A program made the position numbers and the translations under genes. This document shows, piece by piece, positions 14,020 through 55,217 of a stretch of 64,000 bases of DNA. Positions within the stretch are counted from its first letter, which is position 1; each line of letters begins with the position of its first letter. Source of the DNA: an uncultured Bacillota bacterium (GTDB taxonomy: Bacteria > Bacillota_I > Bacilli_A > RFN20 > CAG-288); the NCBI GenBank assembly GCA_949290645.1, contig CASESG010000004.1, positions 10,821-74,820 on the forward strand, given 5' to 3'. A model generated the notes under the pieces. The model was not told the origin of the DNA and did not search any database. It saw only the letters and a program-made list of their open reading frames with translations.

Positions 14020-14020
14020 T

Positions 14021-18957: not shown

Positions 18958-18958
18958 G

Positions 18959-34325: not shown

Positions 34326-34327
34326 CC

Positions 34328-38825: not shown

Positions 38826-38841
38826 CGTGCTTTCCTCCTTG

Positions 38842-39939
38842 TCAGGCAACATCATACCACGCATAGAGCTGGAGATCCCTCAGGACCGGAGTCGTGTCGT
38901 CGAAGCGACCGGCGTTGGGATCGTAGGTCGGAGAGGTGTACCAGCCCAGGAAGAGGTCGTCTCCTCGCTCGGGGATTCCGATCTGTTCGCCGAGGATCCG
39001 CCGGGAAAGCCTTTCGCCTTCCTGGACGAAGTAGGAGACGCTTTCCGCGCCCGAAGGCAGGCTTCCGCCCTGGGCGTCGAAGGTCACGGAGTAGTAGTCG
39101 GGCTCTTCCTCCGCGGCATAGCCGTCGATGGTCAGGAGGAAGGTCCACCCCGCCTCCTCCTTGGCATAGAAGTCTCCGGACTGGATGTCGAGGTAGAAGT
39201 CCCCCACCTCGCCTTGGGAGGGCGAAGGCTCTCCCATTCCGCGCCACCATTCCTGGGCGCGGCCGTAGGGGAGTGGAAGGTCGAACGTGCTTCCGTCGCT
39301 GAGGGTGAAGGTATAGACGCAGGAAGTGGAAGTCACTTCCGTGATCTCGACATGGTCGATCGTGACGCCGTCCCTGCCGTCGGGAAGGAAGAAGACCGTA
39401 TCCGGAGAGCCGTCCTGGTAGTGCAGGACGACCCTCGTTCCGCCTTCCTCTTCCGTGACCTCGAAGGAGGAGATGAGGTGCGTCGCATCCACTCCGTCCT
39501 CGCCCTTGGGAAGGAGGAGGGAGGGACTTTGCGTGCCGTCGGAATACTCGAAGACGAGATTCGTTCCGCCCGTCTCCTCGTCCGTGGAGACGACCAGTCC
39601 CGTAACCAGCCGTCCTTCCTCGCCTTGGGCGTTGGGGACGCGGAAGACGACGTCGTCCCTTCCCGTGAGGGAGATCGTGATCACGATCTCCTCTCCCTCG
39701 ACCTGGGCCGTCACGTCCTCGATCGTCGCCCCGTCCGCTCCAGAAGCGGCGCCGGGAAGGCTCAGGACGAAGTCGGGACGGACGCCGTCCTGGAAGGAGA
39801 GGACGACCTGCTGGTTCCCCTGCCCGTCGACTGTGGTCGACACGTCCTCGATCAGCGCCCCCTGACTCGACCCGAAGAGGAGCGAGCAGGAGGAGAGAAG
39901 GAGGGCCAGAGACGGCAGGAAAAGAATTCCCTTCTTCAT
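38842..39939 (-). CDS. Lipoprotein, paralog of 37683..38825 (G-x-DG repeats plus Flg_new domain)
   Basis: MKKGILFLPSLALLLSSC gives a lipobox. Repeats include GADGATIEDV...ITISL and GEDGVDATHL. The C-terminus is YSVTFDAQGGSL...FLGWYTSP...LQLYAWYD. ATGA overlap with the upstream gene. Confidence 0.8.
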   Translation of the reverse strand: MKKGILFLPSLALLLSSCSLLFGSSQGALIEDVSTTVDGQGNQQVVLSFQDGVRPDFVLSLPGAASGADGATIEDVTAQVEGEEIVITISLTGRDDVVFRVPNAQGEEGRLVTGLVVSTDEETGGTNLVFEYSDGTQSPSLLLPKGEDGVDATHLISSFEVTEEEGGTRVVLHYQDGSPDTVFFLPDGRDGVTIDHVEITEVTSTSCVYTFTLSDGSTFDLPLPYGRAQEWWRGMGEPSPSQGEVGDFYLDIQSGDFYAKEEAGWTFLLTIDGYAAEEEPDYYSVTFDAQGGSLPSGAESVSYFVQEGERLSRRILGEQIGIPERGDDLFLGWYTSPTYDPNAGRFDDTTPVLRDLQLYAWYDVA

Positions 39940-42359
39940 CGTCCCTGTCCTCCCTTCAGATCCGAAAGGGGCGGCATCTTGTCGAAGTATTCCGGCGTTC
40001 CCGTCACGTCTCCGTTGACATAGGTCCGGAAGGGATGCGTTCCCGTCACGGCGACGACCGCCTTGGAAAGCGCCTTGAGCAGGGTGTCGAAGAGCTCTTC
40101 TCCCATCGAGGGGGAATAGGCGCCCGAGAGGATCGCCTGGGCGACGTCGATCTCGATCTCGTCGGAGACGTCAGGGTCGTCCGTCGCAAAGTCGACGCTC
40201 GAAAGGTTCTTTCCTCCGCCATAGAAGATGACGTTGGTCGAGACGTAGTCCTCTCCCGACTCCGGATCGCGATAGTAGGCGTCCGAAGCCGTCAGGATGT
40301 CGTTCAGGATCGGCTTGACGGGGAAGAAGTCGTCGATCGTGATGTCGGCCTCGATGCCCTGGCTGGCCATCAGGGTCGAGAGGTTCTGCAGGATCAATCC
40401 CGAAAGGTCCATCGAGTCGAGCGTCTTCCAGTCGTAGAAGCGGACGTCCCCCTCCAGGGTGAGATGGACCGGAAGGGAGGTCCCGCCGACTTCCTGAGGC
40501 GGAAGGGCCATGTCGCCCAGAAGCTCGTGGACGATGGAGGGCATGCCGTTATAGAGGTATCCGCCGTTGAAGAGCGTGTCGAAGGCGATGGAATAGACGG
40601 CCGAGTTGCCGAAGAAGGTGTCGCGGACCGTGACGTCCGTCCCCAGGACGTTTCCTTCCGCATCCCGGTAGCCGTCCGTGTTGTCCAGGGCTTCCTGCAT
40701 GCCCGAAAGGAAGGAGAGGTAGGAAGTGCCGTCCTGCGCCATCAAGGTCTCCTGCATCCAGCGGTCGGCGGACGCATAGGTGGATTCGTCGTTCTCGTCA
40801 TAGAACGTATCCATGAACGACGAGAAGTCGTAGTCGTGGCTGGTTCCGCCAAGCTCGAACTGGACGCGCCGATTCCGGTCGATGCCGTTGTACTCGTTGT
40901 TTCCCAGGTAGAGGAGGAACTCGCCACCGTTCTGGAGGATCGAGTTCTCGATCAGAAGCCCGTCGGAGGAGAAGGCGCGGACGACGTTCTTCCCGTTCTG
41001 GATGACCGAGTTGCGAATCGTGTTGTCCCTTCCCTCGACGTCGACGACCGACCCCGTGTAGAAGAAGTCGTACATGTTGGACTGGTTGTTGGTGTTCTGG
41101 AGACGGACGTCGTCGACGACGATGCCGTCCCCGTCGACGAAGAAGCCGCAGTTGTCCTGCCCGAAGGCCTCGATCAGGGCGTTGGGTCCAATCTCGCCCA
41201 AGGCCACCAGGGCCAAGGGACCCTTGAAGAGGTCCTCCTCGCCTGGGGTCAGAAGGCCCGAAAGTCCGATCGACCCGTGGTTGGGGAAGGCGAGGTTGTG
41301 GAGGTTGATCGAGAATCCGTTTCCGTAGAAGTCCTTCTGGACGTGGACGCCCGCGATCAAGTCGGTGGAAACCGGCGTCTCTGCCACCTCGTTGTACTGG
41401 TCGACGAAGGTCGTCGGATAGGTCGAGGGGAAGGTGTAGACCTCGTCCTCGAAGGAGAACTCCCCGGTCTGGAAGTCGTAATGGCCGAAGAGCTTCATGG
41501 TCTCGGAACGAAGCTCGTCCCGGTAGACCGGGTCCCCTTCCGCGTCCAGGTCGTAGAGATAGGTGTCCCGGAGCGAACCCAGGGACGTCTGCAGGACGAC
41601 CACCTCGCCTTCGGAAGAACGATTGGTGCACCAGAGCAGGTCGTCGTAGTCGCGGACGTTGACGCCTTCGTCGACGACCTCGAAGGAATAGGTCGCCTGG
41701 ATGGAATCGTCCACCCTGGAGACGACGGTCAATGAGGCCTGCCCGCCTTCGAGAAGCGTCAGCTTCTCCGTCTGCGGATCGAAGCGGACGTTGTCCGAGC
41801 ATTCGAAGTCGTAGCTGGCATCCTGCCCGTCGATCATCACTTCGACGGAAAGGGGAATCGTGCTGGCGGACTTCGTTCCGCCGGCGTCGATCTCGTACTG
41901 GCCATAGCGCCGCACCGAGGAGAGGGAGGTGCCGGAGGAAGGAGCCGGATCGTTGATCAGGACGACTCCGTCTTCGTAGCAGTGGGCCTGGAAGGAACGG
42001 GTCTGCGTCCCGGTCTCGTTGCGGACCGTCAAGGTCGCCTCGCCCTCCCCCTGGGCGTAGAGATAGTAGCTTCCGTCCTGCTCGATAACGGAGCAGACGC
42101 CCTCGTCCGATGCCGAGGAGACCTCCCAGAGCAGGTTCTTGCTCTCGTCCTTGATGATCAGGTTCTCGTCGTAGACGGCCTTCGCTTCCAGGGGATAGCC
42201 CTGGTCCTGGATCTGGAAGCCTTCGTTCTGCCGATAGGGGATCTCGATGCCGTCGATGTCGGCCGCGACCTGGTTGATCAGGACCTGGACGGTGACATAG
42301 GTCAGCAGGGAGACGACGATCGGAGCCACCAAGAGGGCGGCGATGGTCTTCTTTTTCAT
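39936..42359 (-). CDS. Membrane-anchored surface protein (807 aa): Ig-like (Big_2-like) modules plus parallel beta-helix repeats
   Basis: N-terminal anchor MKKKTIAALLVAPIVVSLLTYVTVQVL. Ig-like modules ending ...GEGEATLTVRN and ...GGQASLTVVS. Beta-helix-like repeats NTIRNSVIQNGKNVVRAF / LLIENSILQNGGEFLLYL. ATGA overlaps at both ends. Confidence 0.75.
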   Translation of the reverse strand: MKKKTIAALLVAPIVVSLLTYVTVQVLINQVAADIDGIEIPYRQNEGFQIQDQGYPLEAKAVYDENLIIKDESKNLLWEVSSASDEGVCSVIEQDGSYYLYAQGEGEATLTVRNETGTQTRSFQAHCYEDGVVLINDPAPSSGTSLSSVRRYGQYEIDAGGTKSASTIPLSVEVMIDGQDASYDFECSDNVRFDPQTEKLTLLEGGQASLTVVSRVDDSIQATYSFEVVDEGVNVRDYDDLLWCTNRSSEGEVVVLQTSLGSLRDTYLYDLDAEGDPVYRDELRSETMKLFGHYDFQTGEFSFEDEVYTFPSTYPTTFVDQYNEVAETPVSTDLIAGVHVQKDFYGNGFSINLHNLAFPNHGSIGLSGLLTPGEEDLFKGPLALVALGEIGPNALIEAFGQDNCGFFVDGDGIVVDDVRLQNTNNQSNMYDFFYTGSVVDVEGRDNTIRNSVIQNGKNVVRAFSSDGLLIENSILQNGGEFLLYLGNNEYNGIDRNRRVQFELGGTSHDYDFSSFMDTFYDENDESTYASADRWMQETLMAQDGTSYLSFLSGMQEALDNTDGYRDAEGNVLGTDVTVRDTFFGNSAVYSIAFDTLFNGGYLYNGMPSIVHELLGDMALPPQEVGGTSLPVHLTLEGDVRFYDWKTLDSMDLSGLILQNLSTLMASQGIEADITIDDFFPVKPILNDILTASDAYYRDPESGEDYVSTNVIFYGGGKNLSSVDFATDDPDVSDEIEIDVAQAILSGAYSPSMGEELFDTLLKALSKAVVAVTGTHPFRTYVNGDVTGTPEYFDKMPPLSDLKGGQGR

Positions 42360-43960
42360 GCGCGAACCTCCATGGAACGATAGAGCCTCTCCACCACCTT
42401 CGGGCGGGCGAAGGGGACGGGAAGGAGGAGCAGGAGGCCCGGAAGGACAAAGTATCCGTAAAGCGCGTCCTGTGGCGTGCGAAGGAAGGACAAGACAAGT
42501 CCCAGGACGAGCTCCAGGGTCGGAACGAGATAGGACACCAGGGACGAGAGGAAGGAGAGCTTCAGCTCCCGGTCGCTGAGGTCATGAAGGTCGCCCAGAA
42601 GCGAAAGCAGGTTCATCGAGAAAACCAGAAGAAGTCCCAGGACCAGGCTGATCAGGAAGACTTGCCAGGAGACGATTCCGGTCGAGATCAGGACCACCAG
42701 GGAGACAAGAAGGGACAGGGTGGAGAGGGCAAAGGGGCAGAGAAGCTTGACCAAGAGGATCTCCATCGGATGGTAGGGGAGGGTCTTGGTGACCGTCAGT
42801 CCCTTCTCCTCCGCGGAAGGCTTGAGGGCGTTTCCGGAATTGACGATGCCGGCGAAGAAGAGGATCAGGGAGAGGAAGAGGGCATCCAAAGTGGTCGGAT
42901 AGTAGGTCAGGAAGATGTTGAGGTTGGCCGTGAGCATCACCTTCAGGGAGGAGAGGACGACGAAGGAAAGGAAGGGAAGCATGATCAGTACGGAGGTGTA
43001 GGAGAAGGTGTTGGAGCTGTCCTTGAAGAGAAGGAGGAGCTCCTTCTTCCACAAGGCCTTCCTCGGAGAGTCGATGACAAAGGAGGAGACATCGACTGTC
43101 TTCTTGCTCTCGAAGAGGAAGAGCTTCTTGGAAAGGGCGAAGTCCGCCGCGAAATATCCGGCGGACAAGGAGAGAAGGACGATACCCAAGATGACCAGGC
43201 TGTTGGAGAGCATGTTGTCCTTGCCCCAGAAGAAGTCCAGCATGTTGTAGACCGGGAACATGTAGAAGTTGCTGTCGATCAATCCCGAGACGAAAGCCGG
43301 GGAGAGCGTTCCCGTCAGAGATCCGTCGCTGAGGGCGACCAAAAAGAGGTTCAGGAAGACCTGATAGGCGTAGCAGAGACCCACGACGATGCCACAGGAG
43401 AGGAGGAACTGAATCAAATTCCGGTCTTTCAGATAAAGATGGATGACTTGGAAGAGAAGGGAAAGAACAAAGGAAAATCCCATCGATGTCAAGGCGAGGA
43501 TGAAGGTGTAGACAAGAGACATCACATGATACCAATACGGGAAGTGGACCTTGACGCCGAAGGTGATGAGCAAGGGGAGGGAAAGCAGGGAAAGCTCCAG
43601 CCACTGGGCCAGGAAGACATAGAGCATCTTGGAGAAGACCCTCTTCCCCCTGGAGATCGGAAGAGGAGAGACGACCAGTCGGTCTCTCTCGTCAAAGAGG
43701 GTCCTTCTCGCCCTTGTCGCCCCTTCCAGAATGGCCAGAAGAAAGATCAGGAAGAGGAAAAAGCAGACGACTCCGAAAGGAGCGATGTAGGAATAGCGGA
43801 TGAGCTTGTCGTACAAGGCATCGGTCAAGAAGGAAAGAAGGGCGATCAAAAGCCCTCCTCCGACAAAAGTCAGAAGAAGCTTGAGGGCAAAGAGGGCAAG
43901 AGACGACGTTCCTTCCTTCCGGTTGAGCCGGAATTCCTTAAACAAAAGCTCGAAGATCAT
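42356..43960 (-). CDS. Polytopic ABC-exporter permease-like protein (534 aa)
   Basis: Start was re-picked at ATG 43960 (MIFELLFKEFRLNRKEG), an ATGA overlap with the ATPase stop. About 12 hydrophobic segments. The track ORF is over-extended to 44461. Confidence 0.75.
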   Translation of the reverse strand: MIFELLFKEFRLNRKEGTSSLALFALKLLLTFVGGGLLIALLSFLTDALYDKLIRYSYIAPFGVVCFFLFLIFLLAILEGATRARRTLFDERDRLVVSPLPISRGKRVFSKMLYVFLAQWLELSLLSLPLLITFGVKVHFPYWYHVMSLVYTFILALTSMGFSFVLSLLFQVIHLYLKDRNLIQFLLSCGIVVGLCYAYQVFLNLFLVALSDGSLTGTLSPAFVSGLIDSNFYMFPVYNMLDFFWGKDNMLSNSLVILGIVLLSLSAGYFAADFALSKKLFLFESKKTVDVSSFVIDSPRKALWKKELLLLFKDSSNTFSYTSVLIMLPFLSFVVLSSLKVMLTANLNIFLTYYPTTLDALFLSLILFFAGIVNSGNALKPSAEEKGLTVTKTLPYHPMEILLVKLLCPFALSTLSLLVSLVVLISTGIVSWQVFLISLVLGLLLVFSMNLLSLLGDLHDLSDRELKLSFLSSLVSYLVPTLELVLGLVLSFLRTPQDALYGYFVLPGLLLLLPVPFARPKVVERLYRSMEVRA

Positions 43961-44784
43961 TCCTTCTCCTCCTCCACGTCGAACTGGCGGAAGATCTCCT
44001 TGAGCCTTCTTCTTTCCATCGGCTGCTCGCGGAAGTCGATCGAGCGCTTGATGATGCCGCTGTCGAGGATTCCGACCCGGTCGCAGATCTTGGAGACGAA
44101 GTCGATGTTGTGGGAGGTCAGGAAGATCGTCCTTCCGTTGGCCTTGAGATCCTTCATCAGGTTGAAGAGCATCTCGTTGACGACAAGGTCGAGACCGACC
44201 GTCGGCTCGTCCAGGATCCAGATCCTCGGATTGTGGATCAGGGAGGCGATGAGGCAGATCTTCTGCTTCATGCCGTGGGAATACTCGCGAATTCTCTTCT
44301 TCAGGTCCTGGTCGTTGAAGCGAAGGCGGGTGGCCAGAAGATGATAGTTGGTGACGAACTGGTTCTGCTTGACCCCATAGGCACCGGCGACGAAGGAGAG
44401 ATATTCCTTTCCGGTCATGACCTCGTAGGCCGTCGGTTCGCTGGCGACATAGCCAAAGCATCTCTTGGCTTCCTCAGGCGAAGCAAGGACATCGTTTCCG
44501 AAGATCTCGATCGTCCCTTCCTGGAACGACTTGAGACCGACCATGCAGTCGATGGTGGTCGACTTTCCGATGCCGTTTCTTCCGATCAAGCCGAAAGCCT
44601 CACCCTCCAGGACAGAGATGTCGACTCCCCGGAGCACCTCAAAGGAGCCATAGGACTTCTTCAAGCCATGGATCTGGATAGCCGTCTCCTTCTCCTTCTC
44701 GAGCGGAAGTCCTTCTTCCTTCCTGGAGATCGACTCTTCGGTAACGGGCCTTGTGCCCTTGAGCATCTTTGTCAGTGGATTCAT
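43957..44784 (-). CDS. ABC transporter ATP-binding protein
   Basis: Walker A GRNGIGKST, signature YSHGMKQK, Walker B IWILDEPTVGLD. Start was re-picked at ATG 44784 (ATGA overlap). Confidence 0.9.
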   Translation of the reverse strand: MNPLTKMLKGTRPVTEESISRKEEGLPLEKEKETAIQIHGLKKSYGSFEVLRGVDISVLEGEAFGLIGRNGIGKSTTIDCMVGLKSFQEGTIEIFGNDVLASPEEAKRCFGYVASEPTAYEVMTGKEYLSFVAGAYGVKQNQFVTNYHLLATRLRFNDQDLKKRIREYSHGMKQKICLIASLIHNPRIWILDEPTVGLDLVVNEMLFNLMKDLKANGRTIFLTSHNIDFVSKICDRVGILDSGIIKRSIDFREQPMERRRLKEIFRQFDVEEEKE

Positions 44785-46163
44785 CGAGACCTCCAAAGGC
44801 CCTTGAGCCAGACCAGGACCTTTCCGCGATTCTCGATCACGGAGAGGAAGGCGTGGCAGCTCGGGCAATAGTATCCGTCCTCCCTCTTGCTCAGATGGGC
44901 GTTGTGGCAGACAGGACAGCTGTAGTCGAAGGAATGACCCTCGTCGAACAAGAGGAACAAGGAGGCGAGGTAGTTTCGCATCCTTTCCTTGGATGCCCTC
45001 TCACCCGGAACAAGGACAAGGACATGGTCCTGTCTCTTCTCCTCGAGAAGGGACATCGTCGCCAAGGTGACATCGTCGACCTTCCGCTCCCGGACTTCCC
45101 GGAAGAGGGAAGAGACTTCTTCCTCTTTCACCAAGGGAAGGACCTTGAGCAGGCGGTCGGAGGAGGAGAGAGTGGCGTTGTTCTCCCTATCGAGAAGGAC
45201 AGATCGCAAAAGATAGCCGTCCTTGCGCTCGTAGAGGGAGAGGGTGAGATTCTTTCTCCTTGCGAAGAGACACTGGAAGCGGACTTCTCCCTCCTCGACA
45301 CGATAGCCGTAGGGAGTCAGCTCAAAGCCCTCTTCCGCGAGCTCCGAGAGAAGAGAGAGCAGGACGAAGGAGCGATATCCTTTCTCCTCTTTCTTCCCCT
45401 CCTCGTTTCTCTTTCTCAGCTCGTCGACATAGAAGCGGTAGCAATAGGAATAGAGAGGATGGTGAATCAGGACGTTCGTCGCCTGGATCTGTCCCTTGAT
45501 GGGGAACAGGACCAGGTCGTGATAGAACTTGCTGTTCTTCAGGCGCTTGAGATAGGTCAAGGCCTGATGGAGCAAGAGGTCGACATCCTCTTCCTTCTCG
45601 ATGACAGAGCGGTCGTCGAGATAGGGAACCTTGAGGTCGAAGCGGGAGAGCAGGTCCGTCGGCTCATAGCTGAGCCTCTTGTCCTTCCCGTAGTCGAGAA
45701 GAGAGCCTTCCCTTCTTCCAAAGAGATGGATCAAGTCGTGGATCTCACGGTCGACCATGTCGATCAGCATGCAGAGGAAGCGGTTCTCGTAGGTGTTGTC
45801 GACATCGATCTTCTCCGTCGAGTGGACCAGCTCCGGAACCATCGACCCGTCCTTCTTGCGAGACCAGAAGGAAGGCTCGCGGACCGTCTTCCGGAAATCC
45901 TCTTCCGATAGAGGACCCGAGACCTCGACCCTCTTGACTTCCTCTTCCCGGGAAGTGACGATGGCCGGATTCATGACGATGGAGAGGATGCGAGTCAATA
46001 AGGCGACCAGTTTCCTCGTCCAGGAGAGAAGCTTCTTGGGATCTTCCTTTCGATAGAGGTCGACCTTGCCCGTCTTTTCAAGGGAAAGGAGATGGAAGAA
46101 GTTCTTCTCCCCTTCCATCGAGACCAGCTGACGGTGGAGTTCGGACAAAAGCTGTTCTCTCAC
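44781..46163 (-). CDS. McrC/DUF2357-like partner protein with a C-terminal Zn-ribbon and no evident PD-(D/E)xK nuclease motif
   Basis: Lies directly downstream of the McrB-like gene (GTG 46163 is 1 nt after its TAA). The TYENRFL motif is recalled from DUF2357/McrC-like proteins. The C-terminus is CPVCHN...CPSCH. No D...(D/E)xK block was seen by eye. Confidence 0.45.
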   Translation of the reverse strand: MREQLLSELHRQLVSMEGEKNFFHLLSLEKTGKVDLYRKEDPKKLLSWTRKLVALLTRILSIVMNPAIVTSREEEVKRVEVSGPLSEEDFRKTVREPSFWSRKKDGSMVPELVHSTEKIDVDNTYENRFLCMLIDMVDREIHDLIHLFGRREGSLLDYGKDKRLSYEPTDLLSRFDLKVPYLDDRSVIEKEEDVDLLLHQALTYLKRLKNSKFYHDLVLFPIKGQIQATNVLIHHPLYSYCYRFYVDELRKRNEEGKKEEKGYRSFVLLSLLSELAEEGFELTPYGYRVEEGEVRFQCLFARRKNLTLSLYERKDGYLLRSVLLDRENNATLSSSDRLLKVLPLVKEEEVSSLFREVRERKVDDVTLATMSLLEEKRQDHVLVLVPGERASKERMRNYLASLFLLFDEGHSFDYSCPVCHNAHLSKREDGYYCPSCHAFLSVIENRGKVLVWLKGLWRSR

Positions 46164-46164
46164 C

Positions 46165-47979
46165 TTAGAGCCTCTTGATGAGCTTGCCGACGTTGTGACG
46201 CGTCAGCGGGAACTTCTCCTTTCCGTACGTCTCGTCGATCAGATCCAGAAGGTCGAGAAGACCCTGGCGGACATAATCCTCGAAACGGCCCTCGAGCTTG
46301 TAGAGGACCTTGCGGGCAAAGAGGAAGTCAAGCGCGTCTTCCTTTGTTCCTCCGCAGCTGACATAGACCGGGACAAGGATCTCGATCTGGTTGAGGACAC
46401 GGTTACCGAAGGTGATGTCGAAGGTGTCCGAGAGGAAGGAGATGAGCTTGGCGAAGCGGGCGAAGTCCTCCTTCGTCAGGCGATTGCTCTCGGTCGAGAG
46501 AGCCTTGGCATAGAGGGCGTTGAGTCCCTTATAGGTCAGATGGATCGGAGCGACCTCTCCCTCGACCTCGAAAGGTTCGTTGCGGTCGTCGAAGGAAATC
46601 GTGATGGCACGGTCATAGACCTTGTCGGTGATGGTGTAGGTCGAGTCGTCCTTGTTGGCCGTTCCGATGAACCAGGTGTTCTCCGGGATCTTCAGGACGC
46701 CGTTCTCGAGATGGCTGGGCCCCTCGAATTCATAGGGAACCTGAAGGATGCGGAGCTTCCACTTGTCGATCGGGTATTCCATGATGGAGAGGAAGTCGGC
46801 GAAGTAGTATTCGACACGGGAGATGTTGACCTCGTCCAGGACCATGATGTTGATGTCGTTGGGGCGATAGGTCATCTGATACAGACGCTTGAGGAAGTCC
46901 GTCTCGTTGTACTTGCGGGAGAAGTCGTTGAAGAAGCCGAGCAGGGAAGTGCGGTCTCTCCAGGAAGCCTGGACCGGCTCGAAGAAAGATTCCTCTCCGA
47001 TGTATTCGGAGAAGTAACGGGCCAAGGAAGACTTACCCGTTCCCGAGAGGCCTTCCAGGATCAACAGACGGCTGGCCGCCATGCCCGAGAGGAAGGCGCG
47101 GATCGTGTCGATGGAGAAGTAGAGACCCTCGTTCTTCGCCAAGTAGCGACGGAAGTCCTCCGAGATCTCCCTGAGGGAGAGAGTCGTCTCGCTCTGGTTG
47201 AGCGGAGTCCTTGTCTCCTCGACCTCGTCGATCGTGCAAAGGCCAGGGAAGACATATTCCTTGGAGCCAAGCTCCGCTTCCGTCTGCTCGTCCTTCTCCT
47301 CCCCGTCCAGAGAGTTCGTCAGGTTGGAAAGGGCCGAGGAGGAAGGCCCCAAGGCCGAAGCCAGGGACAATCCATCGGCCGAGGCCAGAGTCGGTTCCTG
47401 CTTGTTATCCTGCTCATCGTCGATATCTTCCGTATCCTCGCCCTTGTTGAAGCGGAAGGGCTTGTCGATGTTGCGGAAATTGACGACCATCATGCAGAAG
47501 AAGAGAATCGGCAAGGCCAGGACGACGAAGAGCAGAGTGCCGATCAAGAGAGACTCGCCGAAGAAGAGGAAGCTGTTTCCGATCGCTCCCTCGCCCCTTC
47601 CGATCTGAGCCAGGAAGGAAAGGCCCAGCCAGAGAACGGCGCCTCCGAAGAAGGTCAAGGAGTAGATCAGGATCCACTTGGGAGTGAACAGCTTCTTTTC
47701 ATAAAACATGGCCAGGCGCATCTCGTAGATCAAGGCGCCGGCACAAAGGAATGCGTACACGCAGAACAGTCCCAAGACCATCCAGCCCTCGAAGCTGACC
47801 GATACCGAAGGAAGCTTCAGCATGGAAAACAGCACCTTCCGGAGCGGGCTGTTTTCGCTGATCAGGGCATTTCCCGTGTCGGCGAAGAATCCCGAGCCAG
47901 CCACGAACAACAGATAGAAGAACAGCAACGACAGGAAGATGTAGTTCTTCCTTGTAAAATGAGTCTTTCGTTTCTTCAT
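46165..47979 (-). CDS. Membrane-anchored McrB-family AAA+ (AAA_5) NTPase
   Basis: The N-terminal 170 aa or so contain 4 TM helices, followed by an acidic linker. The NTPase core reads LEGLSGTGKSS (P-loop), VLDEVNISRVEYYFADFLS (Walker B / McrB signature), WFIGTANKDDST, DKVYDRA. GGGAGG RBS; ATGA overlap with the sipW stop. Confidence 0.75.
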   Translation of the reverse strand: MKKRKTHFTRKNYIFLSLLFFYLLFVAGSGFFADTGNALISENSPLRKVLFSMLKLPSVSVSFEGWMVLGLFCVYAFLCAGALIYEMRLAMFYEKKLFTPKWILIYSLTFFGGAVLWLGLSFLAQIGRGEGAIGNSFLFFGESLLIGTLLFVVLALPILFFCMMVVNFRNIDKPFRFNKGEDTEDIDDEQDNKQEPTLASADGLSLASALGPSSSALSNLTNSLDGEEKDEQTEAELGSKEYVFPGLCTIDEVEETRTPLNQSETTLSLREISEDFRRYLAKNEGLYFSIDTIRAFLSGMAASRLLILEGLSGTGKSSLARYFSEYIGEESFFEPVQASWRDRTSLLGFFNDFSRKYNETDFLKRLYQMTYRPNDINIMVLDEVNISRVEYYFADFLSIMEYPIDKWKLRILQVPYEFEGPSHLENGVLKIPENTWFIGTANKDDSTYTITDKVYDRAITISFDDRNEPFEVEGEVAPIHLTYKGLNALYAKALSTESNRLTKEDFARFAKLISFLSDTFDITFGNRVLNQIEILVPVYVSCGGTKEDALDFLFARKVLYKLEGRFEDYVRQGLLDLLDLIDETYGKEKFPLTRHNVGKLIKRL

Positions 47980-48941
47980 TTCTTCTCTTCCTCCCTTTCT
48001 CCGTCATCCGTCCCTTCTCTCTTCCCGTCTTCTTCTTTCTCGCCCTTCTCTCCCGTCAGGGGGAGGAGGGCGTACGTCTTGTCCCGATAGGTCAGTTCCT
48101 CCTGGAACCGGACCGTGACCTTCTCCCGGCTCTCCTCGTCCTTCGCATCGAAGGGGAGCTCCGAAAGCAGGTATTCCTTCCGCTGTTCCAAGGCCTGTTC
48201 GTACTTCGAGGAGAAGCGATCGAACATCACGAAGCAATAGAGGATGGAGACGATCGTGATGATTCCGGCATTGGACTGCAGGAAGACGATCAAGGATCCG
48301 ACGCCCTGGATGCGGAAGCCGTTGTAGCGCCCCAGGATGTCGTCATAGGAGAGCAGGCCTTCGTAGGTCAGTCCCGTGTCCGACGCCGCATTGGCGTCTC
48401 CGCGGGTGACGTAGCCTCCTTCGCGGATCTCGACGATGCGGTGGACGATGATCTCTCCTTCCATGCTCCGATAGGCGACGACGTCGTAGAGCTGAACCTC
48501 TTCTGGGCTGCGGTACCGTTCGATGCCGATGATGTCGTAGGCATCGAACTGGTTGTCGAGTCCGTTGTCGAACAGATAGTCGTTCTCGTCGTTCTTCTCC
48601 GACATCGACCCCGTTGCAATGACAAGGGGCGCCTTGTCTCCGAAGAAGAGGACGCCCGAATTGAACCGTGCCACCAACGTCATGACGAAGAAGGCAGCCA
48701 CCAGGGCCAGGACCACGTATCCCGCAATCTTGAAGGACAGGGTCAAGGCCTTCTTCTTCCTGTCGCCGCTCTTCTCCTCGCTGATGGCAATGTCTTCCAG
48801 AAGGGCCGGGTCTTCCCGGCCCGTCAGGACGTTGTCCGTCTCCGAACGATAGTAATGCCGGAAGAGGAACGTGAAGGCCACGCAAAAGCTCAGAAGGCAG
48901 ACAATGGTGACAACCAGAGAAATGATTTCAATGGAAGACAT
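47976..48941 (-). CDS. sipW: Signal peptidase I, archaeal/SipW type (S26B), with extra N-terminal TM region and acidic C-terminal tail
   Basis: Catalytic blocks ATGSMSE (Ser), IVHRIVE (His) and TRGDANAASD match the SipW pattern SGSMEP / HRIV / KGDNN..D. A C-terminal TM is followed by a roughly 90-aa Glu/Lys-rich tail. Confidence 0.75.
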   Translation of the reverse strand: MSSIEIISLVVTIVCLLSFCVAFTFLFRHYYRSETDNVLTGREDPALLEDIAISEEKSGDRKKKALTLSFKIAGYVVLALVAAFFVMTLVARFNSGVLFFGDKAPLVIATGSMSEKNDENDYLFDNGLDNQFDAYDIIGIERYRSPEEVQLYDVVAYRSMEGEIIVHRIVEIREGGYVTRGDANAASDTGLTYEGLLSYDDILGRYNGFRIQGVGSLIVFLQSNAGIITIVSILYCFVMFDRFSSKYEQALEQRKEYLLSELPFDAKDEESREKVTVRFQEELTYRDKTYALLPLTGEKGEKEEDGKREGTDDGEREEEKK

Positions 48942-48978
48942 TCAGAAAAAGCGAAAGAACGATCCTCGCTCTCCTGAT

Positions 48979-49653
48979 TTATGCCGTGACAGCGGCAATC
49001 GAAATGGAAATCTGATTGTCGTTATAGCCAGCAACCGCGTTGAGCGCATTGACGGCGTCGTCCAACGTCTTCCCCGTCTTTCCGCCGAAGTAGTCTTCCG
49101 GATTGGCCGGATTGTGGTTATTGAAATACGAACCCCAGGCGAACTCGACCGTGACGGTCAAGGTCGTTCCCGAATAGGAAGGAGTGATCGTCGCTTCGCC
49201 GCTCGCCGTTTCGCTGGCAGCCGCAACCGTTCCGTTTGTGACCGTGGCGATAGTGACCGCAGTCCCGGTGGTGCAGGGCGTGACGATGTATTCGGAATTC
49301 CAGCTCGGCCAGGTCGGAGTCATCGTAACCGTGCCGTTTGCCGTGGCGACTGCCGTAACATCGATGGTGAAGGCAAAGGACATGTCTTCCGTAGATGTCT
49401 CACTCCTGATCGCTCCCGCGTCATCCTCGACAGGGCCGAACCTGACGGTTCCATTGCTAGGATCCAACGCCGGCGTTCCCAAAGTGATCGTTCGGCGATC
49501 GTCGACGTTGTCCGCCGTCACGCTGATGTTGTCCAAAGTCTGACTTGTTTCCGTGGAAATCACCCACGAGGCATAGCCGATGCCGGCCGTGGCAACGGCG
49601 GCGCAGGAGATGAGGGAGATGGCAAACAGCTTCTTATGCTTGATCTTCTTCAT
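48979..49653 (-). CDS. Small secreted protein (224 aa) with the GYASWVI motif; paralog of 49675..50445
   Basis: AAAGGAG RBS. N-terminus MKKIKHKKLFAISLISCAAVATAGIGYASWVIS. Shares a C-terminal block (F.WGSYF...NP..Y) with the upstream gene. Confidence 0.85.
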   Translation of the reverse strand: MKKIKHKKLFAISLISCAAVATAGIGYASWVISTETSQTLDNISVTADNVDDRRTITLGTPALDPSNGTVRFGPVEDDAGAIRSETSTEDMSFAFTIDVTAVATANGTVTMTPTWPSWNSEYIVTPCTTGTAVTIATVTNGTVAAASETASGEATITPSYSGTTLTVTVEFAWGSYFNNHNPANPEDYFGGKTGKTLDDAVNALNAVAGYNDNQISISIAAVTA

Positions 49654-49674
49654 GATTTCTTTCTCCTTTCTTGC

Positions 49675-50445
49675 TTAGGCAACGTTTTCCGTCAAGGTGG
49701 AAGTCAGGATCAGGTCCGCGCTGTCGGAATCCTCGCCCGTGATGGCTTCGTTCATCTTGTTCAGCTCATCGATGACGCCCTGCAGGTGCGCCGCGTTTGC
49801 CGCCGACAGCGTTCCCTTCTGGAACAGGCCGTTGTAATACGTCATCGGGTTCAACGCGTCGAAGTAGCTTCCCCACGTGAAGGTCAAGGTCTGACCGCTC
49901 AGCGTCGCAAGATAGGTCCCGTCCGACTGCTCCTCGAAAGCGTCCTTCGCAATCGTGACGGCCGCCGGAGCCTCCAAATAGGTGAAGCTCTCCTCATCAC
50001 GAATGTTCAGCGTATCGTCCGAGGTCGTGACTTTGCCGGTCGAAGTCTCATCGAAGGCGAAGGTGACAGTCACGCCGCTGTCCAGCAGGCTGTTCACGTA
50101 GTCGGCACCCGCCGTGACCGTGATCGTCGCCGTCACGGTAAGGTCTTCGTTGCGCGAAGATGCGTCTTCTCCGAGGGTCACGACGGAGGACGTGATGCTG
50201 GAATCCGCTCCCGAGGTGTCCTTTCCGCCCAGGAAGAGGGCCTTCTCGGTCAGATTCACGGCCAGGGTCACCGAATCGTTGCGGGCCGTATCGACGGCGA
50301 CGGTCACATCGTCCTTGTCGTTTCGGATCTGATTGCCGATGATCCAGGTTGCGAATCCGGTCGCGATAAGCGTAACGGACGCAAAGCCGATGATGCCACC
50401 AGCAATCCACTTCTTCCTTCCAACGGATTTGTTGTTTTTCGGCAT
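49675..50445 (-). CDS. Small secreted protein (256 aa) with the GFATWII motif; first gene of the operon
   Basis: Start was re-picked at ATG 50445 (AAAGGAGAACACT-ATG). N-terminus MPKNNKSVGRKKWIAGGIIGFASVTLIATGFATWIIGN. Contains TFTWGSYFDALNP. Confidence 0.85.
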   Translation of the reverse strand: MPKNNKSVGRKKWIAGGIIGFASVTLIATGFATWIIGNQIRNDKDDVTVAVDTARNDSVTLAVNLTEKALFLGGKDTSGADSSITSSVVTLGEDASSRNEDLTVTATITVTAGADYVNSLLDSGVTVTFAFDETSTGKVTTSDDTLNIRDEESFTYLEAPAAVTIAKDAFEEQSDGTYLATLSGQTLTFTWGSYFDALNPMTYYNGLFQKGTLSAANAAHLQGVIDELNKMNEAITGEDSDSADLILTSTLTENVA

Positions 50446-50583: not shown

Positions 50584-50592
50584 CCCCCCCCC
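50584..50592. repeat. Homopolymeric C9 (G9 on the operon strand), about 140 nt upstream of the first operon gene
   Basis: Read directly: aga ccccccccc gac at 50581-50595. No ORF crosses it. Confidence 0.95.
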
Positions 50593-51372
50593 GACAAATT
50601 TTAGCTTTTTGCTCTCAAATAATCAGGATCAATCGAGGCTGTTTTCAATTAACTTTTTTTCACGATAAATAAACAAACGATCAAGTTTTCGTTTTCTTTT
50701 TCGAACTTTTCGTGAATATCATTTCCATCGCTTCCTTATTTCGCATCTCGTCAATCAGTTATTCTTTTGTTTTCAATCGTCCACGGAAATCGAAAGACTC
50801 AATTCTTTTAGACATTCTTGTTGTTTTGTCAGTTCTGGCGATATATGGCAATGATGAGTGTACGAACCTTAATCTCCTCTCAAATTGGAGCATTCCGATT
50901 GGATATGAACACGGACAAAAAAGAAGAATTCCGTCATCGGAAAAGCATCAATCCGCTTGCGATAATATCGTTTTCTGAGACATGCCTTTCCTTCATATGC
51001 ACATGGCTTCACAAAGTTGATACGAAAGATCTGTCAAAGAACATACAAAAGAGGGGGGCTTTAAACCATTGAAATGACATATATATAAAATCTCAAATAT
51101 TTTGCAATAGGTTGTTAGTTGTATAATACCTTTCATTAAAATTATTTTATCTTTTCTTCTCGATTGTCAATTAAATTGTTTAAATTGTGGAGATACTCTA
51201 AGGCTCTTTCAAAGGACGCAAGGCCTTTTCCGAAAGCCACCTAGAACTAATTGCGAACAATATGCAAACTTGCGAAACGGCTATTGAATTTCTCAAAGCG
51301 AAAAAATGGACGCCTTAGAAATTATCTAGAAATTTTATCGTTTTTTCGATAGCTATCGAAAGATATCAAACG

Positions 51373-51735
51373 TCAGTTCTGGCTTCTCTTCCGGTCGTTG
51401 TAGATGTCCTCATCCTTCTCGGAGACATGCTCCAAACCCGTCCGGAAGAGATCCTTGATGTGGTTGTCCGTCAAGACATAGAGAACCTGCTTCCCCTTTC
51501 GATAGTAGGTGACGATGTCATGCTTCCGAAGGACCTGGAGCTGGTGAGAGACACGGCTCTGGGAGAGATTGAGGATCTCCGAGATGTCGTTGACACAGAG
51601 CTCATGCTTCAAAAGCAAAGAGACAATCGAGAGCCTTGTCGCATCCCCGAAGATGGAGTAGAAGGAAGAGAGTGTCTCAATGCTCTTTGCGGAAAGAAGC
51701 TGATCCTGAATCGTCTTTTTCGTTTCGTTGTCCAT
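51373..51735 (-). CDS. ArsR/SmtB-family transcriptional regulator
   Basis: Winged HTH FGDATRLSIVSLLLKHELCVNDISEILNLSQSRVSHQLQVLRKHDIV. Start was re-picked at ATG 51735 (MDNETKK). Confidence 0.8.
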   Translation of the reverse strand: MDNETKKTIQDQLLSAKSIETLSSFYSIFGDATRLSIVSLLLKHELCVNDISEILNLSQSRVSHQLQVLRKHDIVTYYRKGKQVLYVLTDNHIKDLFRTGLEHVSEKDEDIYNDRKRSQN

Positions 51736-52195
51736 AATGACATTATAGTCCGTAGCGAGAAACAAGGAAAAGGACGCTTTGCACGATCTTCATTCCAATC
51801 GAGTCTCTCAATGCTCTTCTCAAATCCTCCGTCGTTGCCATTGAACTTTTGACAAGAGAAAGAGCGACACAATCGTATTGCTGACGAACACCTCCGAATC
51901 TTTTGAACTATAGTTGAAGTGCAACATCGTGAGCTTTTGACAGCATTCAAAACCATGATAGCACTGACCCATTTGGCAGGCTTCAAGCATCCGAAATGAA
52001 GTCCCTCCATTTCTTTCTTCGACCAGCGAGAACTTTCCGCGGTTGTGTTTGTTCACTCTCCCACTTGCGAAAAGACGAATGTCAAAAAAAGTCGCGAATG
52101 CCCCCATCAAAATGGGTTATGCTCGAATGCTCTATGAGATTGTAGCATGCGATGTAAGAGGACAGCCAAACAATAAATAATAGGATGGTGACGTA

Positions 52196-53234
52196 ATGAC
52201 TAAAAAGAAAGACAACAAACTGCAGATTCAAAACAGCACAGTGGATTTCCTTGTGATTGCAAAAGACGCTCACGAGGACGGCATAGAAGTCCGTGTTCAA
52301 AGTCACGATGTATGGCTGACACAAAAGGCAATCGGCCAGCTTTTTGATGCGGACAGGAGCGTTGTTGCATAGCATCTCAAGAACATTTATGAGAGCGGCG
52401 AATTGTTCGAAGACTCAACTTGTGCAAATTTTGCACAAGTTGCAGAGAACGGAAAAACATCAATACAAATTTTATTCTCTGCCCGCTATTATCGCCGTCG
52501 GTGACCGGGTCAACTCCAGCAGGGCGACAGAATTCCGACAATGGGCAGCAAAGGTATTGGATACCTTTGCCAAACAGGGATATGTCTTGGATAAAAGCAG
52601 ACTGATGAATGGCCAAATCTTCGATGAGGATTATTTTGACCACCTGATTTCCGAGATACAGGAAATCAGGGCAAGTGAACGCCGCTTCTACCAGAAAACC
52701 ACAGATATTCAACGGCGCAGAACAAGAGGCATTATGCCGTTCGGAAATACAGCAGCCGAAATTATTGTGGCAAGGACAAATCGTACAAAGGAACATATGG
52801 GTTTGACATCTTGGCGCAACGCTCCTAACGGGAAAATCGTAAACGCCGATGTATCAATCGCAAAAAATCTACTTATCGGCGGAAGAGAGGAAGAAGCTAA
52901 ACGAGATTGTCACGATGTATCTGGACTACGCTACAAGGCAGGCCAGACGGCATATTCCCATGACAATGGCCGATTGGGCTTCCAAACTAGATGCGCTTCT
53001 GCAATTCACCGATGTCGAGATTTTACAGGACAAAGGGAAGTCACAGCAACAATCGCCAAATCATTTGCAGAAAGTGAATTTGAGAAATACCGAATCATCC
53101 AAGATCGTTTGCACCAAAGCGATTTTGACCGTCTAGTAGCCAGCGTGAATAAAGAAAAAGAATCTCAGCAACACCTCGGGGAAGAGGAAAACGCGGCAAG
53201 AGAAAAGAAGCAACTCGAAAATAGTGAAGTGTAA
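52196..53234 (+). pseudogene. RhuM-family (virulence-protein-like) gene with an in-frame TAG and at least two frameshifts
   Basis: Frame 1 reads MTKKKDNKLQIQNSTVDFLV...VWLTQKAIGQLFDADRSVVA*HLKNIYESGEL (TAG at 52370-52372). The sense continues in a second frame (AIIAVGDRVNSSRATEFRQWAAKVL...ASERRFYQK) and then a third (EERKKLNEIVTMYLDYA). Confidence 0.7.
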
Positions 53235-53429
53235 AGGCCGAATCTAGTGAAATAGATGTCTGCTAGTCTCAAGTAAAATCTAAAATTGATACGTTTTAAA
53301 TTTTCAAAGCAAAATTAAGTAATTTAAAGAATTATATTATGAAAGCATCTTCTGATAGTTTTGTTAAATCAAACGTTTCATAATCTTACCATTTTGCACG
53401 GATGAGAAATACATAATAACGATTATGGG

Positions 53430-53740
53430 ATGGAGTTTTACCACGCAGAATATATCGATGTGGCCAAAGAATGGGCTTGCGACCAGCTTATCTGTGGGTA
53501 TGCAAGCAAGTATTCCATCGGCAGGACCGGTCTCAAGATTCTCGATCTCAATTCAAAGGATGCAACATCCTCCATTGTTTCTCTGCGCTCCTACAAAATC
53601 GCAAAGGGACAATCCAAGCGGACATCGAAGAAGGCATGGACGACATCCTTCGCAATTTCCCTGCTGATGTCAAAAACATCGATGTGATCATCGACCATTG
53701 CGCAGAAGATTCCTATTTTTCTTTCACAAGAGATTTTTAA
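53430..53740 (+). pseudogene. Frameshifted gene fragments, family uncertain
   Basis: MEFYHAEYIDVAKEWA... continues in another frame as ...IEEGMDDILRNFPADVKNIDVIIDHCAEDSYFSF. AT-rich, non-host codon usage. Confidence 0.25.
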
Positions 53741-54180
53741 GCAATACGATCAGCGTCGAGCGCCTCTCACAGACGACGCGGCTCGGGAATCTCGGCAATC
53801 AAATCATCATCAAACCCAAGCTCGCATTTTCCAAGTTGAAATTCATCGGCTGTGAAAAAGCATCGCAGTACGCTACCCGCTTTGCAAGAACCGTGACGTG
53901 CTTTTAAGAAAAGTCTATCTCTCCAATCGGAGTTCTTCGTCTTTTGAAGGCCTCTTTCTCATCGGCCTGATCCGAGGAGGAATCAAATCCAATAATCCAC
54001 GCTCACAATGAAATCTATCTTTCCGATGTCATGTGAAATCTCGCCGCACTCTTCGACATCGCCAGCAGCGGGATGGAATTCCAGACCGACGAAATTGCGA
54101 CAAAGTTCGTCTCCTCCGTGGTCGCAAGCGGAATCGAATCCGGAAACCCCAAATAGCTTTCAAGAAAATCGGCCGCAGAG

Positions 54181-54603
54181 ATGCTATCCGAGATCCTTGG
54201 CCAAGACATCGTCTATAACCGGGTTCCAATGGAGCGTTCCCCCGAATATTGGGCAGGCTGGTTCCTCGCCTATTTCAAATGGTATCTAAACAAATCCTTC
54301 AAGGAGTTTCTGGATGTCGTGCCATTGCATGCACTCATCTTGAGATACTCTCCCTATCATGAGACTCCCGAAGAAAAGACCGACGAACGGATCGAAGAAC
54401 AGTTGCCAATCCAAAACAAGCCGACCTATTCCAGAGAACTTCGCAAGCTCCCAAAAAGACAGCTGTCCGTCTTGAGCGGTGTTCCCGTTCGCTCGATCAA
54501 TTGCTATGAGCAGGATTGTGCTCTTCTTCGGAAAGCACAAGCGGAAACCTTATACGCCATTGCCAAAACCTTGGATTGCACCATCGAAGACCTGCTCAAT
54601 TGA
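54181..54603 (+). CDS. XRE-type HTH domain protein (possibly the 3' part of a gene disrupted by in-frame TGA and TAG upstream)
   Basis: The C-terminus is an HTH (LSVLSGVPVRSINCYEQD...LYAIAKTLDCTIEDLL). The same frame upstream reads ...NLAALFDIASSGMEFQTDEIATKFVSSVVASGIESGNPK*LSRKSAAE-M..., with TAG at 54154-54156 and TGA at 54034-54036. Confidence 0.5.
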   Translation: MLSEILGQDIVYNRVPMERSPEYWAGWFLAYFKWYLNKSFKEFLDVVPLHALILRYSPYHETPEEKTDERIEEQLPIQNKPTYSRELRKLPKRQLSVLSGVPVRSINCYEQDCALLRKAQAETLYAIAKTLDCTIEDLLN

Positions 54604-54995
54604 AGTTTTAGACAGTTTCAAAGAAAAGAAGCAGCTTCACTTTTCATCCTCTCGTTCAATTGGAGACAATCGGATGCCACATTACAAACGTTTCTTGATT
54701 TATTATTAAAAATGTATAAATGGTTTTTCATTTTTTATTTTAGCTTTTATGTTGTCCAAAGCCTGTGTTCAACAACTTGCAGCGATTGAATATCCTTTGT
54801 TTTTTTGAGCTCTGATCAATTCACTACGTCTTACGTCCTGCCCATAGCAAAAGATATTCCAAGGCTTTTCCTAAGAGCAAAAAACATGTGTTCATATTTA
54901 GAATGAGAAACACATTTATAATTAGATGAAAACTATAGAAATTATATATATAAATATATATAATTAAAGGTGTTGCTGCTTCAAAGGAGACCGCT

Positions 54996-55217
54996 ATGAA
55001 CGAGACAAAAATAGTGATTCGCATCCGCGGAGACTTCATCACGCTCGGGCAATTCCTCAAGAAGGTCGATCTGATCCAGACCGGAGGAGAGGAGAAGCCT
55101 TATCTTGCGATGCACGACGTCTTCATCAACGGTGAGAAGGACATCCGCAGAGGTCGCAAGATCCGCCCGGGAGATATCGTCCAAACGGAAGACAAGACCT
55201 ACGAGATATGTTCGTAA
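54996..55217 (+). CDS. yaaA: S4-domain RNA-binding protein YaaA
   Basis: 73 aa with an S4-like fold sequence (ITLGQFLKKVDLIQTGGEEK...INGEKDIRRGRKIRPGD). Occupies the canonical position immediately upstream of, and overlapping, recF. Confidence 0.8.
   Translation: MNETKIVIRIRGDFITLGQFLKKVDLIQTGGEEKPYLAMHDVFINGEKDIRRGRKIRPGDIVQTEDKTYEICS

Follow-up and report, generated by a model that had tools for sequence, protein, structure and literature searches.

Why do six proteins encoded by one operon carry the same short motif directly after their N-terminal hydrophobic stretch, and is this motif read by the signal peptidase that is encoded among them? The question is raised by a stretch of 64,000 nucleotides from an uncultured Bacillota bacterium (assembly GCA_949290645.1, contig CASESG010000004.1, positions 10,821 to 74,820 of the forward strand), which was analysed as a whole and is called the window in the following. 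A preliminary description of this window had noticed the motif, G[FY][SA][TS][WF][VI][IV], and had proposed that it is a variant recognition or cleavage signal for a neighbouring SipW-type peptidase, possibly a new subclass. Our analysis leads to a tentative answer, to which we assign a probability of roughly 0.45: the motif would be the end of a cluster-specific Sec-type leader that is read and cut by the co-encoded Sec11-type peptidase. From here on, the motif is referred to as the box and its six carriers, in operon order, as P1 to P6.

The box is confined to one operon

In the 127,996 six-frame codons of the 64-kb window, the strict pattern occurs exactly six times, compared to 0.0066 matches predicted from residue composition. 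All six matches lie on the minus strand within one operon (30.1-50.4 kb), and each of them directly follows a lysine/arginine-rich start and an N-terminal hydrophobic stretch. The same six-frame scan found no further copy in the window, including in the lipoproteins of the operon, which carry LSSCS lipoboxes, and in its exported protein of 807 amino acids. The motif thus exists as described and is restricted to this gene cluster, and the preliminary description was right both in this respect and in stating that the lipoproteins and the 807-residue protein lack it. Because P1/P2 and P4/P6 are pairs of paralogues, the six copies are not independent draws. A loosened pattern was read alongside the strict one over the window and 31 related loci, 30 of which came from a pattern scan with one genome per species and one of which was a further locus (1.13 million six-frame codons in total). 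Here, 91 matches were found against 1.75 expected, and 88 of them stand at the end of an N-terminal leader made up of lysine/arginine residues plus a hydrophobic stretch; the remaining three are about the number that chance predicts. Chance occurrence was rejected.

The six N-termini read as previously described. P1 (49675-50445, minus strand like all six genes, 256 amino acids) is the first gene of the operon. Its motif GFATWII is encoded by codons 50338-50358, and its leader consists of MPKNNKSVGRKKW, followed by IAGGIIGFASVTLIAT and GFATWII. The start at 50445 is backed by its homologues, all of which begin with MxKNNKS. An inner near-copy of the box, GFASV, is located nine residues before GFATW in P1. 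The paralogue P2 (48979-49653, 224 amino acids; GYASWVI, codons 49558-49578) shares a C-terminal WGSYF..NP box with P1. In the case of P3 (37012-37686, 224 amino acids; GFSTWVI, codons 37606-37626), the GTG start overlaps the stop of the upstream gene, and a weak similarity to P2-like genes in the related locus L011 was detected. P4 (34328-37000, 890 amino acids; GYATFVV, codons 36896-36916) and its paralogue P6 (30109-32835, 908 amino acids; GFSTWII, codons 32746-32766) read as large proteins with beta-helix-like repeats. P5 (32832-33505, about 220 amino acids; GFSSWVI, codons 33396-33416) has a frame that is broken within the leader.

With the N-termini removed, BLAST detected similarity between P1 and P2 (E=1e-4) and between P4 and P6 (E=7e-18), and found no match of P3 or P5 to the other motif proteins. 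The box is modular: it is common to the passengers P1/P2, P3, P5 and P4/P6, which show no detectable mutual similarity beyond the two paralogue pairs. Large P4/P6 homologues from other species carry GRSTWVV, GYSSWEI, GFSSWTT or GYSSWLI, and the conserved core is therefore G-x-S-[ST]-W.

Constraint and geometry of the box

To describe the box at the residue level, a profile was calculated from 85 unique N-termini, counting the invariant glycine (100%) as position 0. Downstream of it follow F or Y at +1 (99%), A or S at +2 (99%), T or S at +3 (94%) and W at +4 (95%). Positions +5 and +6 are I, V or L, which at +5, the residue after the tryptophan, amounts to 98% of the N-termini, and position +7 is G, S or N. 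Upstream, A or S prevails at -5 (88%), T, S, A or G at -2 (97%), and V, T or I at -1.

The degree of constraint was taken from an alignment of 108 P1 homologues, the most distant of which are at about 25% identity. Averaged over columns, the entropy is 0.32 bits in the box, 0.83 bits in residues 1-37 and 2.29 bits in residues 38-256, so that the box is under much stronger constraint than its carrier proteins. In the same homologues, W13, G17, F21, A25, T29, T33 and G37 of P1 are each conserved at 90% or more, forming a stripe with a period of i+4.

The position of the box is also fixed. From the last charged residue of the leader to the motif glycine, the distance is 17 residues in 69 of 87 unique N-termini (79%) and 16-18 residues in 82 of them, and the uncharged span has a median of 26 residues. 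Two bonds obey the -3/-1 rule of signal peptidases, namely xxG|F (T, S, A or G at -3, G at -1) and GFA|T (G at -3, A or S at -1). Together with the lysine/arginine-rich n-region and the uncharged stretch of 16-18 residues, these two candidate sites provide the features of a Sec class I signal. Altogether, the properties of the motif point to a functional module of fixed geometry.

The co-encoded peptidase and its linkage to the motif genes

The neighbouring gene at 47976-48941 (minus strand, 321 amino acids) had previously been called a SipW-type peptidase. Our searches agree: it encodes a Sec11/SipW-type S26 signal peptidase I that reaches 54.4 bits on TIGR02228, the model of the archaeal/ER-type family, above the curated cut-off of 51.85. 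On the Bacillus SipW equivalog NF046067 it scores 46.2 bits against a cut-off of 190. The best PDB relatives are human SEC11A and SEC11C, catalytic subunits of the eukaryotic signal peptidase complex; in the alignment with SEC11A, the HR and GDxN boxes of both proteins coincide. The active site motifs are TGSMS, containing the serine, IVHRIV, with a histidine in place of the bacterial lysine, and TRGDAN, with a GDNN-like aspartate; among 28 orthologues, 90% or more retain SM, HR and GD.N.

Outside of the catalytic boxes, the peptidase carries an additional, conserved membrane helix at its N-terminus, in which polar positions are conserved too (M...EI..L..T...L.SF...FT.LFR.Y) and an insertion of about 16 amino acids directly after the catalytic serine (N..N.Y.....L..Q...YD). 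A C-terminal membrane helix, conserved in the 28 orthologues as well, is followed in the enzyme of the window by a long acidic tail rich in Glu and Lys. Typical SipW enzymes of 190 amino acids have neither this extra N-terminal helix nor the insertion, the C-terminal helix or the tail. Judged by these sequence features, the peptidase is a subfamily distinct from the Bacillus SipW equivalog, and it appears to be active and specialised.

The linkage between the motif genes and the peptidase extends over many species. In 27 of 27 species-level loci with downstream sequence, the gene order is the same: one to six tandem motif genes (220-310 amino acids), the peptidase, an AAA+ protein, a zinc ribbon protein of ~460 amino acids, an ABC-2 (ATP-binding cassette) ATPase and permease, and a protein of ~810 amino acids. 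The identity of the peptidase across the loci ranges from 35 to 98%. The gap from the last motif gene to the peptidase is usually 70 nucleotides or less and elsewhere about 700-2400 nucleotides; the longer gaps apparently hold at least one paralogue missed by the pattern, a P2-like paralogue being confirmed in some of the loci only.

Proposed mechanism and its alternatives

These observations can be joined into a possible export route. In it, the leader would combine a lysine/arginine-rich n-region, an uncharged stretch of almost exactly 17 residues and the box [ST][VI]-G-[FY]-[AS]-[TS]-W-[IV]-[IV]-[GSN]. It would mark the small tandem P1/P2-type subunits as well as the beta-helix-like repeat proteins of ~900 amino acids, directing both to the peptidase. 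The latter, with its extra helix and the insertion next to the serine, may dock the leader within the membrane, measure the 17-residue span and cut at the outer face, at G|F or at GFA|T. The conserved residues behind the cut could then serve recognition or the later assembly of the mature protein at the surface. For P1, the predicted N-terminal peptides are FATWIIGNQIR for a cut at G|F, TWIIGNQIR for a cut at A|T and WIAGGIIGFASVTLIATGFATWIIGNQIR if the full leader is kept. This system would be a variant of the theme of a dedicated peptidase with a cognate signal, and it is probably a private export signal that has not been previously described. Directly observed are the box with its modular distribution and its constraint, the 17-residue ruler, the genetic linkage to the peptidase and the preserved catalytic residues of this enzyme.

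The closest solved relatives of the peptidase, SEC11A and SEC11C (PDB 7P2P and 7P2Q), share its Ser-His-Asp chemistry. Their complex reportedly selects substrates by the length of the hydrophobic region through a thinned membrane window, which offers an explanation for the 17-residue ruler. Unlike the SEC11 complex, the bacterial enzyme described here consists of one polypeptide that carries extra helices of its own, accessory subunits were not identified, and the measuring of substrates would be deduced by analogy.

Several points weigh against cleavage by the co-encoded enzyme. That a cut takes place, at which bond it takes place and that this peptidase is the agent are inferred from sequence. 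The whole leader of P1 is conserved, which is unusual for a signal peptide that is discarded. The i+4 stripe spans both candidate sites and would fit equally well to one continuous helix packed on a partner, and the uncharged span, with its median of 26 residues, appears long enough for a membrane anchor. If the lineage is like the order RFN20, which is predicted to be free of sortases and in two families of peptidoglycan (see below), a fully released protein would need another anchor. If the peptidase is the sole type I signal peptidase of the genome, it would not be a 'private' enzyme. Scoring by the models TIGR04088 and TIGR04089, which the preliminary description had suggested, turned out negative: none of the six N-termini matched either model at E<=10, a range in which the HMMER filters drop most matches above about E=0.1, while TasA as control reached 41.4 bits on TIGR04088 and, weakly, 20.9 bits on TIGR04089 in the same run.

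A second lineage adds to these points. A metagenome motif scan with a narrow N-terminal alignment, which mostly sampled one abundant lineage, returned 63 loci. In 61 of the 63, the source is a lineage of low guanine-plus-cytosine (GC) content with P1 and P2 closely matching those of Clostridium sp. CAG:568, a lineage that is abundant in human gut metagenomes. Motif and spacing are intact in these loci (L033-L094 and L017). In all 61, the pair of P1 and P2 is found with no peptidase homologue, as searched with tblastn and with a profile built from the 28 orthologues; many of the loci are short, and the absence extends to 10 kb per side only in the largest ones. The pair is located beside upp, tgt and queA, for example in L043, where it occupies 9195-10651 and is followed by these three genes. 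Adjacency to a peptidase is thus not universal, and the proximity of motif and peptidase, expected from the preliminary description, holds in 27 of 27 informative species-level loci and not in the loci of the CAG:568 lineage, up to 10 kb on each side of the pair. The large genes upstream of these pairs lack Pfam matches and may represent a variable or defence-type region.

Part of this evidence can be read as favouring a leader that is never removed. The proteins would then keep an uncleaved signal-anchor that tethers them to a wall-less cell, and the box would be a helix-packing or interfacial motif with its tryptophan at the outer interface. The partner of the helix could be the extra helix of the peptidase, the ABC permease, the AAA+ protein or a fellow leader, and the peptidase would act elsewhere or conditionally. 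Besides the stripe in P1, its fully conserved leader, the long uncharged span and the CAG:568-type pairs that keep the motif with no peptidase next to it, this explanation can draw on the small or beta-branched residues that all paralogues have at the stripe positions (A/S at -5, V/T/I at -1, T/S at +3 and G/S/N at +7). However, a simple anchor needs neither a 17-residue ruler nor small residues compatible with the -3/-1 rule at two consecutive sites. It also leaves unexplained why the motif genes are placed, almost obligatorily, directly upstream of a catalytically intact peptidase, and the hydrophobic regions of the other paralogues are much less conserved than that of P1. Overall, we consider an uncleaved anchor possible but somewhat doubtful. 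Alternatively, the proteins could be cleaved with the co-encoded enzyme being simply the general type I signal peptidase of the organism and the box serving assembly, not recognition by the peptidase. The residues behind the cut would then form a functional mature N-terminus, such as a hydrophobic donor strand or plug, that the AAA+/ABC machinery or adjacent subunits would recognise. In favour of this, the greater part of the box (F-A-T-W-I-I-G) follows the G|F site, the tandem small paralogues resemble sets of major and minor subunits, and the CAG:568-type pairs manage with no adjacent peptidase. LepB-type peptidases are often scarce or absent in mycoplasmas and related bacteria, which was counted in favour of this explanation as well. 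Yet the subfamily-specific features near the active site and the extra conserved membrane helix suggest a specialised enzyme, the 807-residue protein of the same operon has no box, and the modelled fold of P1 gave no significant match to a donor-strand pilin or to TasA. A general peptidase therefore appears distinctly improbable to us.

The explanation that we disfavour most assigns no sorting role to the box at all and regards it as one ancestral N-terminal segment spread by duplication. The paralogue pairs P1/P2 and P4/P6 and the tandem arrays, which arise by duplication, are in line with it. Even so, conservation of the box far exceeds that of the remaining sequence, also among homologues at only 25% identity, its spacing is fixed when signal peptides normally gain and lose residues freely, and the box is common to passengers with no detectable homology. 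Taken together, specificity, modularity, constraint and the 17-residue ruler rule out chance and plain inherited paralogy, and inheritance alone was accordingly given next to no weight. Among these explanations, we thus prefer a leader read and cut by the co-encoded peptidase, with a small share of the probability assigned to none of them.

Comparison with known signals and systems

The system appears, by analogy, to work most like tapA-sipW-tasA. In this Bacillus subtilis operon, a dedicated peptidase is encoded with its cognate substrates (PMC9245690). In both cases, a Sec11/SipW-type S26 peptidase shares one operon with several exported proteins, and the leader ends in an unusually conserved G..TW box that runs past the cut, or here past the candidate cut. 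Differences were found as well. Unlike TasA/camelysin, the passengers have no PF12389 match, and the P1 model has no Foldseek match to TasA or AbpA. Unlike tapA-sipW-tasA, the operon also encodes an AAA+ protein anchored in the membrane, an exporter of the ABC type, Lgt and lipoproteins. A TasA homologue was rejected, as neither sequence nor fold matched.

The preliminary description had considered the box to be a SipW signal variant or a new subclass. This proposal is partly supported. The box is absent from existing signal models, which makes 'new subclass' a fair description. Two defining features of the TIGR04088 class (a signal model of 34 positions) were tested and were not found, and the six proteins are thus not members of the tapA-sipW-tasA signal class. 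A small -1 residue directly after T-[WYF], which is a feature of this class, is lacking; a SipW-type neighbour gene, another such feature, is present in 27 of 27 informative loci and not in the CAG:568-type loci. Cleavage at the bond equivalent to that of TasA is likewise not supported: aligning G-x-x-T-W to GGGTWA|A of TasA leaves I or V at -1, in conflict with the -3/-1 rule. TIGR04089 (exp_by_SipW_III), which presumably describes mainly actinobacterial proteins, is similar in its idea that SipW-like peptidases have several distinct cognate signal classes, and differs in that its model matches none of the six N-termini.

Type IV pilin systems resemble the operon in the conserved G|F junction, the possibly retained hydrophobic stretch, the tandem small paralogues beside a dedicated peptidase and an NTPase, and an N-terminus that is more conserved than the globular part. 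In contrast to type IV pilins, the hydrophobic segment precedes G-F, and the peptidase is an S26 serine enzyme of the outer face and not an A24 aspartyl enzyme. In the operon, no A24 peptidase and no PilB- or PilC-like gene was found, and the NTPase is McrB-like. A type IV pilin signal was rejected for its reversed order and the wrong peptidase family. A lipoprotein signal was also rejected, as no cysteine lies in or after the box, unlike in the genuine lipoproteins encoded alongside, which have LSSCS. The literature was searched for the motif strings and for SipW in connection with mycoplasma-related lineages, and nothing relevant turned up.

Passenger proteins and the remainder of the operon

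The P1 family comprises 1635 representative clusters at E<=1e-3, with no Pfam domains and no informative names. Pfam searches at E<=0.1 gave no family for P1, P2, P3, P5 and P6 and only a sub-threshold DUF5626 for P4, and NCBIfam gave nothing meaningful on the six motif proteins. The AlphaFold2 model of P1 has a mean predicted local distance difference test (pLDDT) value of 74.5, with about 90 in the core and less than 50 in residues 1-53. Foldseek searches with this model gave no PDB match better than E=0.05, with TasA and AbpA not among the hits, and no significant BFVD match. The top fold match, a self-complemented FimA (E=0.05, template modelling score (TM-score) 0.2-0.28), was too weak and was set aside. 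PDB sequence searches with the P1 profile, the 460-residue protein and the 807-residue protein found nothing. A homology search with a leader-only profile, directed at carriers of any passenger, yielded one match among 148 candidates.

Next to the peptidase, on the minus strand like the rest of the operon, lies a gene for a membrane-anchored McrB-like AAA+ NTPase (46165-47979, 604 amino acids), which matches PADLOC PDC-M26A at 2.6e-35 and McrB in the PDB; its N-terminal hydrophobic segments were read by eye. It is followed by the 460-residue protein (44781-46163), which has a C-terminal CxxC...CxxC zinc ribbon and no hydrophobic leader in its translation. The latter is present in all loci at 23-65% identity as a conserved partner of the AAA+ protein, and in each of the 27 species-level loci, the genes for both separate the peptidase from the ABC exporter. 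It is unusual for an McrB-type NTPase with a membrane anchor to be a fixed part of a surface-protein operon. The ABC-2-type exporter (42356-44784) consists of a DrrA/GldA-like ATPase (about 43957-44784) and a permease of 534 amino acids (42356-43960). The 807-residue exported protein (39936-42359) shows a weak right-handed beta-helix signal and an N-terminal hydrophobic segment.

Beyond this gene, the operon of the window continues with two lipoproteins, P3, P4, lgt, P5 and P6. The lipoproteins (37683-39939; 393 and 365 amino acids) have LSSCS-type lipoboxes and a C-terminal Listeria-Bacteroides (Flg_new) repeat. Between P4 and P5, lgt (33510-34343) encodes a prolipoprotein diacylglyceryl transferase (PF01790, 83 bits). 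As lgt is located in the operon downstream of two lipoprotein genes, two different routes of protein anchoring are encoded together.

The window is chromosomal, with recF, gyrB, gyrA and serS at 55-62 kb. The stretch from recF to the operon (50600-55200 in the window, 8570-9762 in L095 and 5860-9074 in L097) differs among close relatives: some have a RhuM-family gene and small open reading frames, and all have a gene for an ArsR/HTH_5 regulator immediately before the operon, which thus borders a variable insertion spot near the gene set of the replication origin. Elsewhere, at 10804-19086, three consecutive open reading frames on the minus strand (1071, 1136 and 561 amino acids) have no Pfam match at E<=1e-5 and no motif. 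Rfam searches found nothing in the window or in the leader region of the operon.

Homopolymer tracts

The only two long homopolymers of the window both belong to this operon, being a G10 run in P5 and a G9 run upstream of P1. In P5, the G10 run (gene strand, 33452-33461) lies in the leader and leaves the ATG at 33505 in a different frame from that of the motif; G11 or G8 would restore the frame. The dash with which the P5 N-terminus had been written in the preliminary description is therefore a real frameshift. It represents either a phase-variable 'off' state or a homopolymer error of sequencing or assembly.

The G9 tract (50584-50592, minus strand) is located 147 nucleotides upstream of the P1 start and is a candidate phase-variation switch. 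In related loci, the position of the upstream tract is kept, its flanks diverge and its length varies, with G9 in L002, L097 and L098 and G11 in L095. L014, with a GC content of 29% and a P1 of only about 30% identity, has G9 at -148. In L001 and L004, a C8 tract is found in the 17-nucleotide spacer of a TTGACT...TATAAA promoter-like site, and in L003 the C tract is interrupted. A promoter scan around the G9 tract of the window did not place it between -35 and -10. By their sequence, the tracts look like slipped-strand switches and suggest phase-variable expression of the operon, as might be expected for proteins exposed at the surface.

Surface proteins that are phase-variable via homopolymer slippage are known from mycoplasmas and further host-associated bacteria. 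The operon resembles these systems in that tracts of varying length lie within the 5' coding part of one motif gene and ahead of the whole operon. Further similarities are the fast-evolving surface proteins and a lineage that lives in association with hosts, for which the nearest named order has some families that are predicted to be wall-less. The operon differs from those systems in that switching would be deduced from tract lengths only and in that the frameshift of P5 may be an assembly error.

Organisms and implications

P1 homologues come only from uncultured gut Bacilli, under the source names Candidatus Onthovivens, 'uncultured Mollicutes', 'Bacilli bacterium' and Clostridium sp. CAG:568. 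The named relatives are thus uncultured, host-associated Bacilli close to mycoplasmas. Candidatus Onthovivens, which the NCBI taxonomy places only in Bacilli, is one that we take to be a member of the GTDB order RFN20. This order is common in human and animal guts. Sortases are predicted to be absent across it, and peptidoglycan is predicted to be absent in two of its families (PMC10868615).

The gene content of the operon suggests a larger surface-assembly system. As a bolder conjecture, which we regard as unlikely in its full extent, the 20-kb operon would be an undescribed machine for building a surface structure: tandem pilin-like subunits and large adhesins with beta-helix-like repeats would share the membrane helix and the box, the peptidase would process them, the AAA+ protein, its zinc-ribbon partner and the ABC-2 exporter would extract or assemble them, and slippage would switch their expression. 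If true, a filament or surface coat would be made by a new route, one that differs from those of type IV, sortase and chaperone-usher pili as well as of TasA fibres.

In the case that the co-encoded peptidase does read and cut the leader, the small set of 'private' pairs of signal peptidase and substrate would be extended beyond TasA/SipW, and the strict spacing of 17 residues would offer a natural test of substrate measuring by Sec11-type peptidases. For the organisms themselves, the importance lies in surface display by cells that are predicted to have no sortases and, in some families, no peptidoglycan. Here, the box is a searchable tag that gives a handle on the surface proteome, and it comes with a dedicated peptidase, a conserved gene set and a P1-type carrier family of about 1600 clusters.

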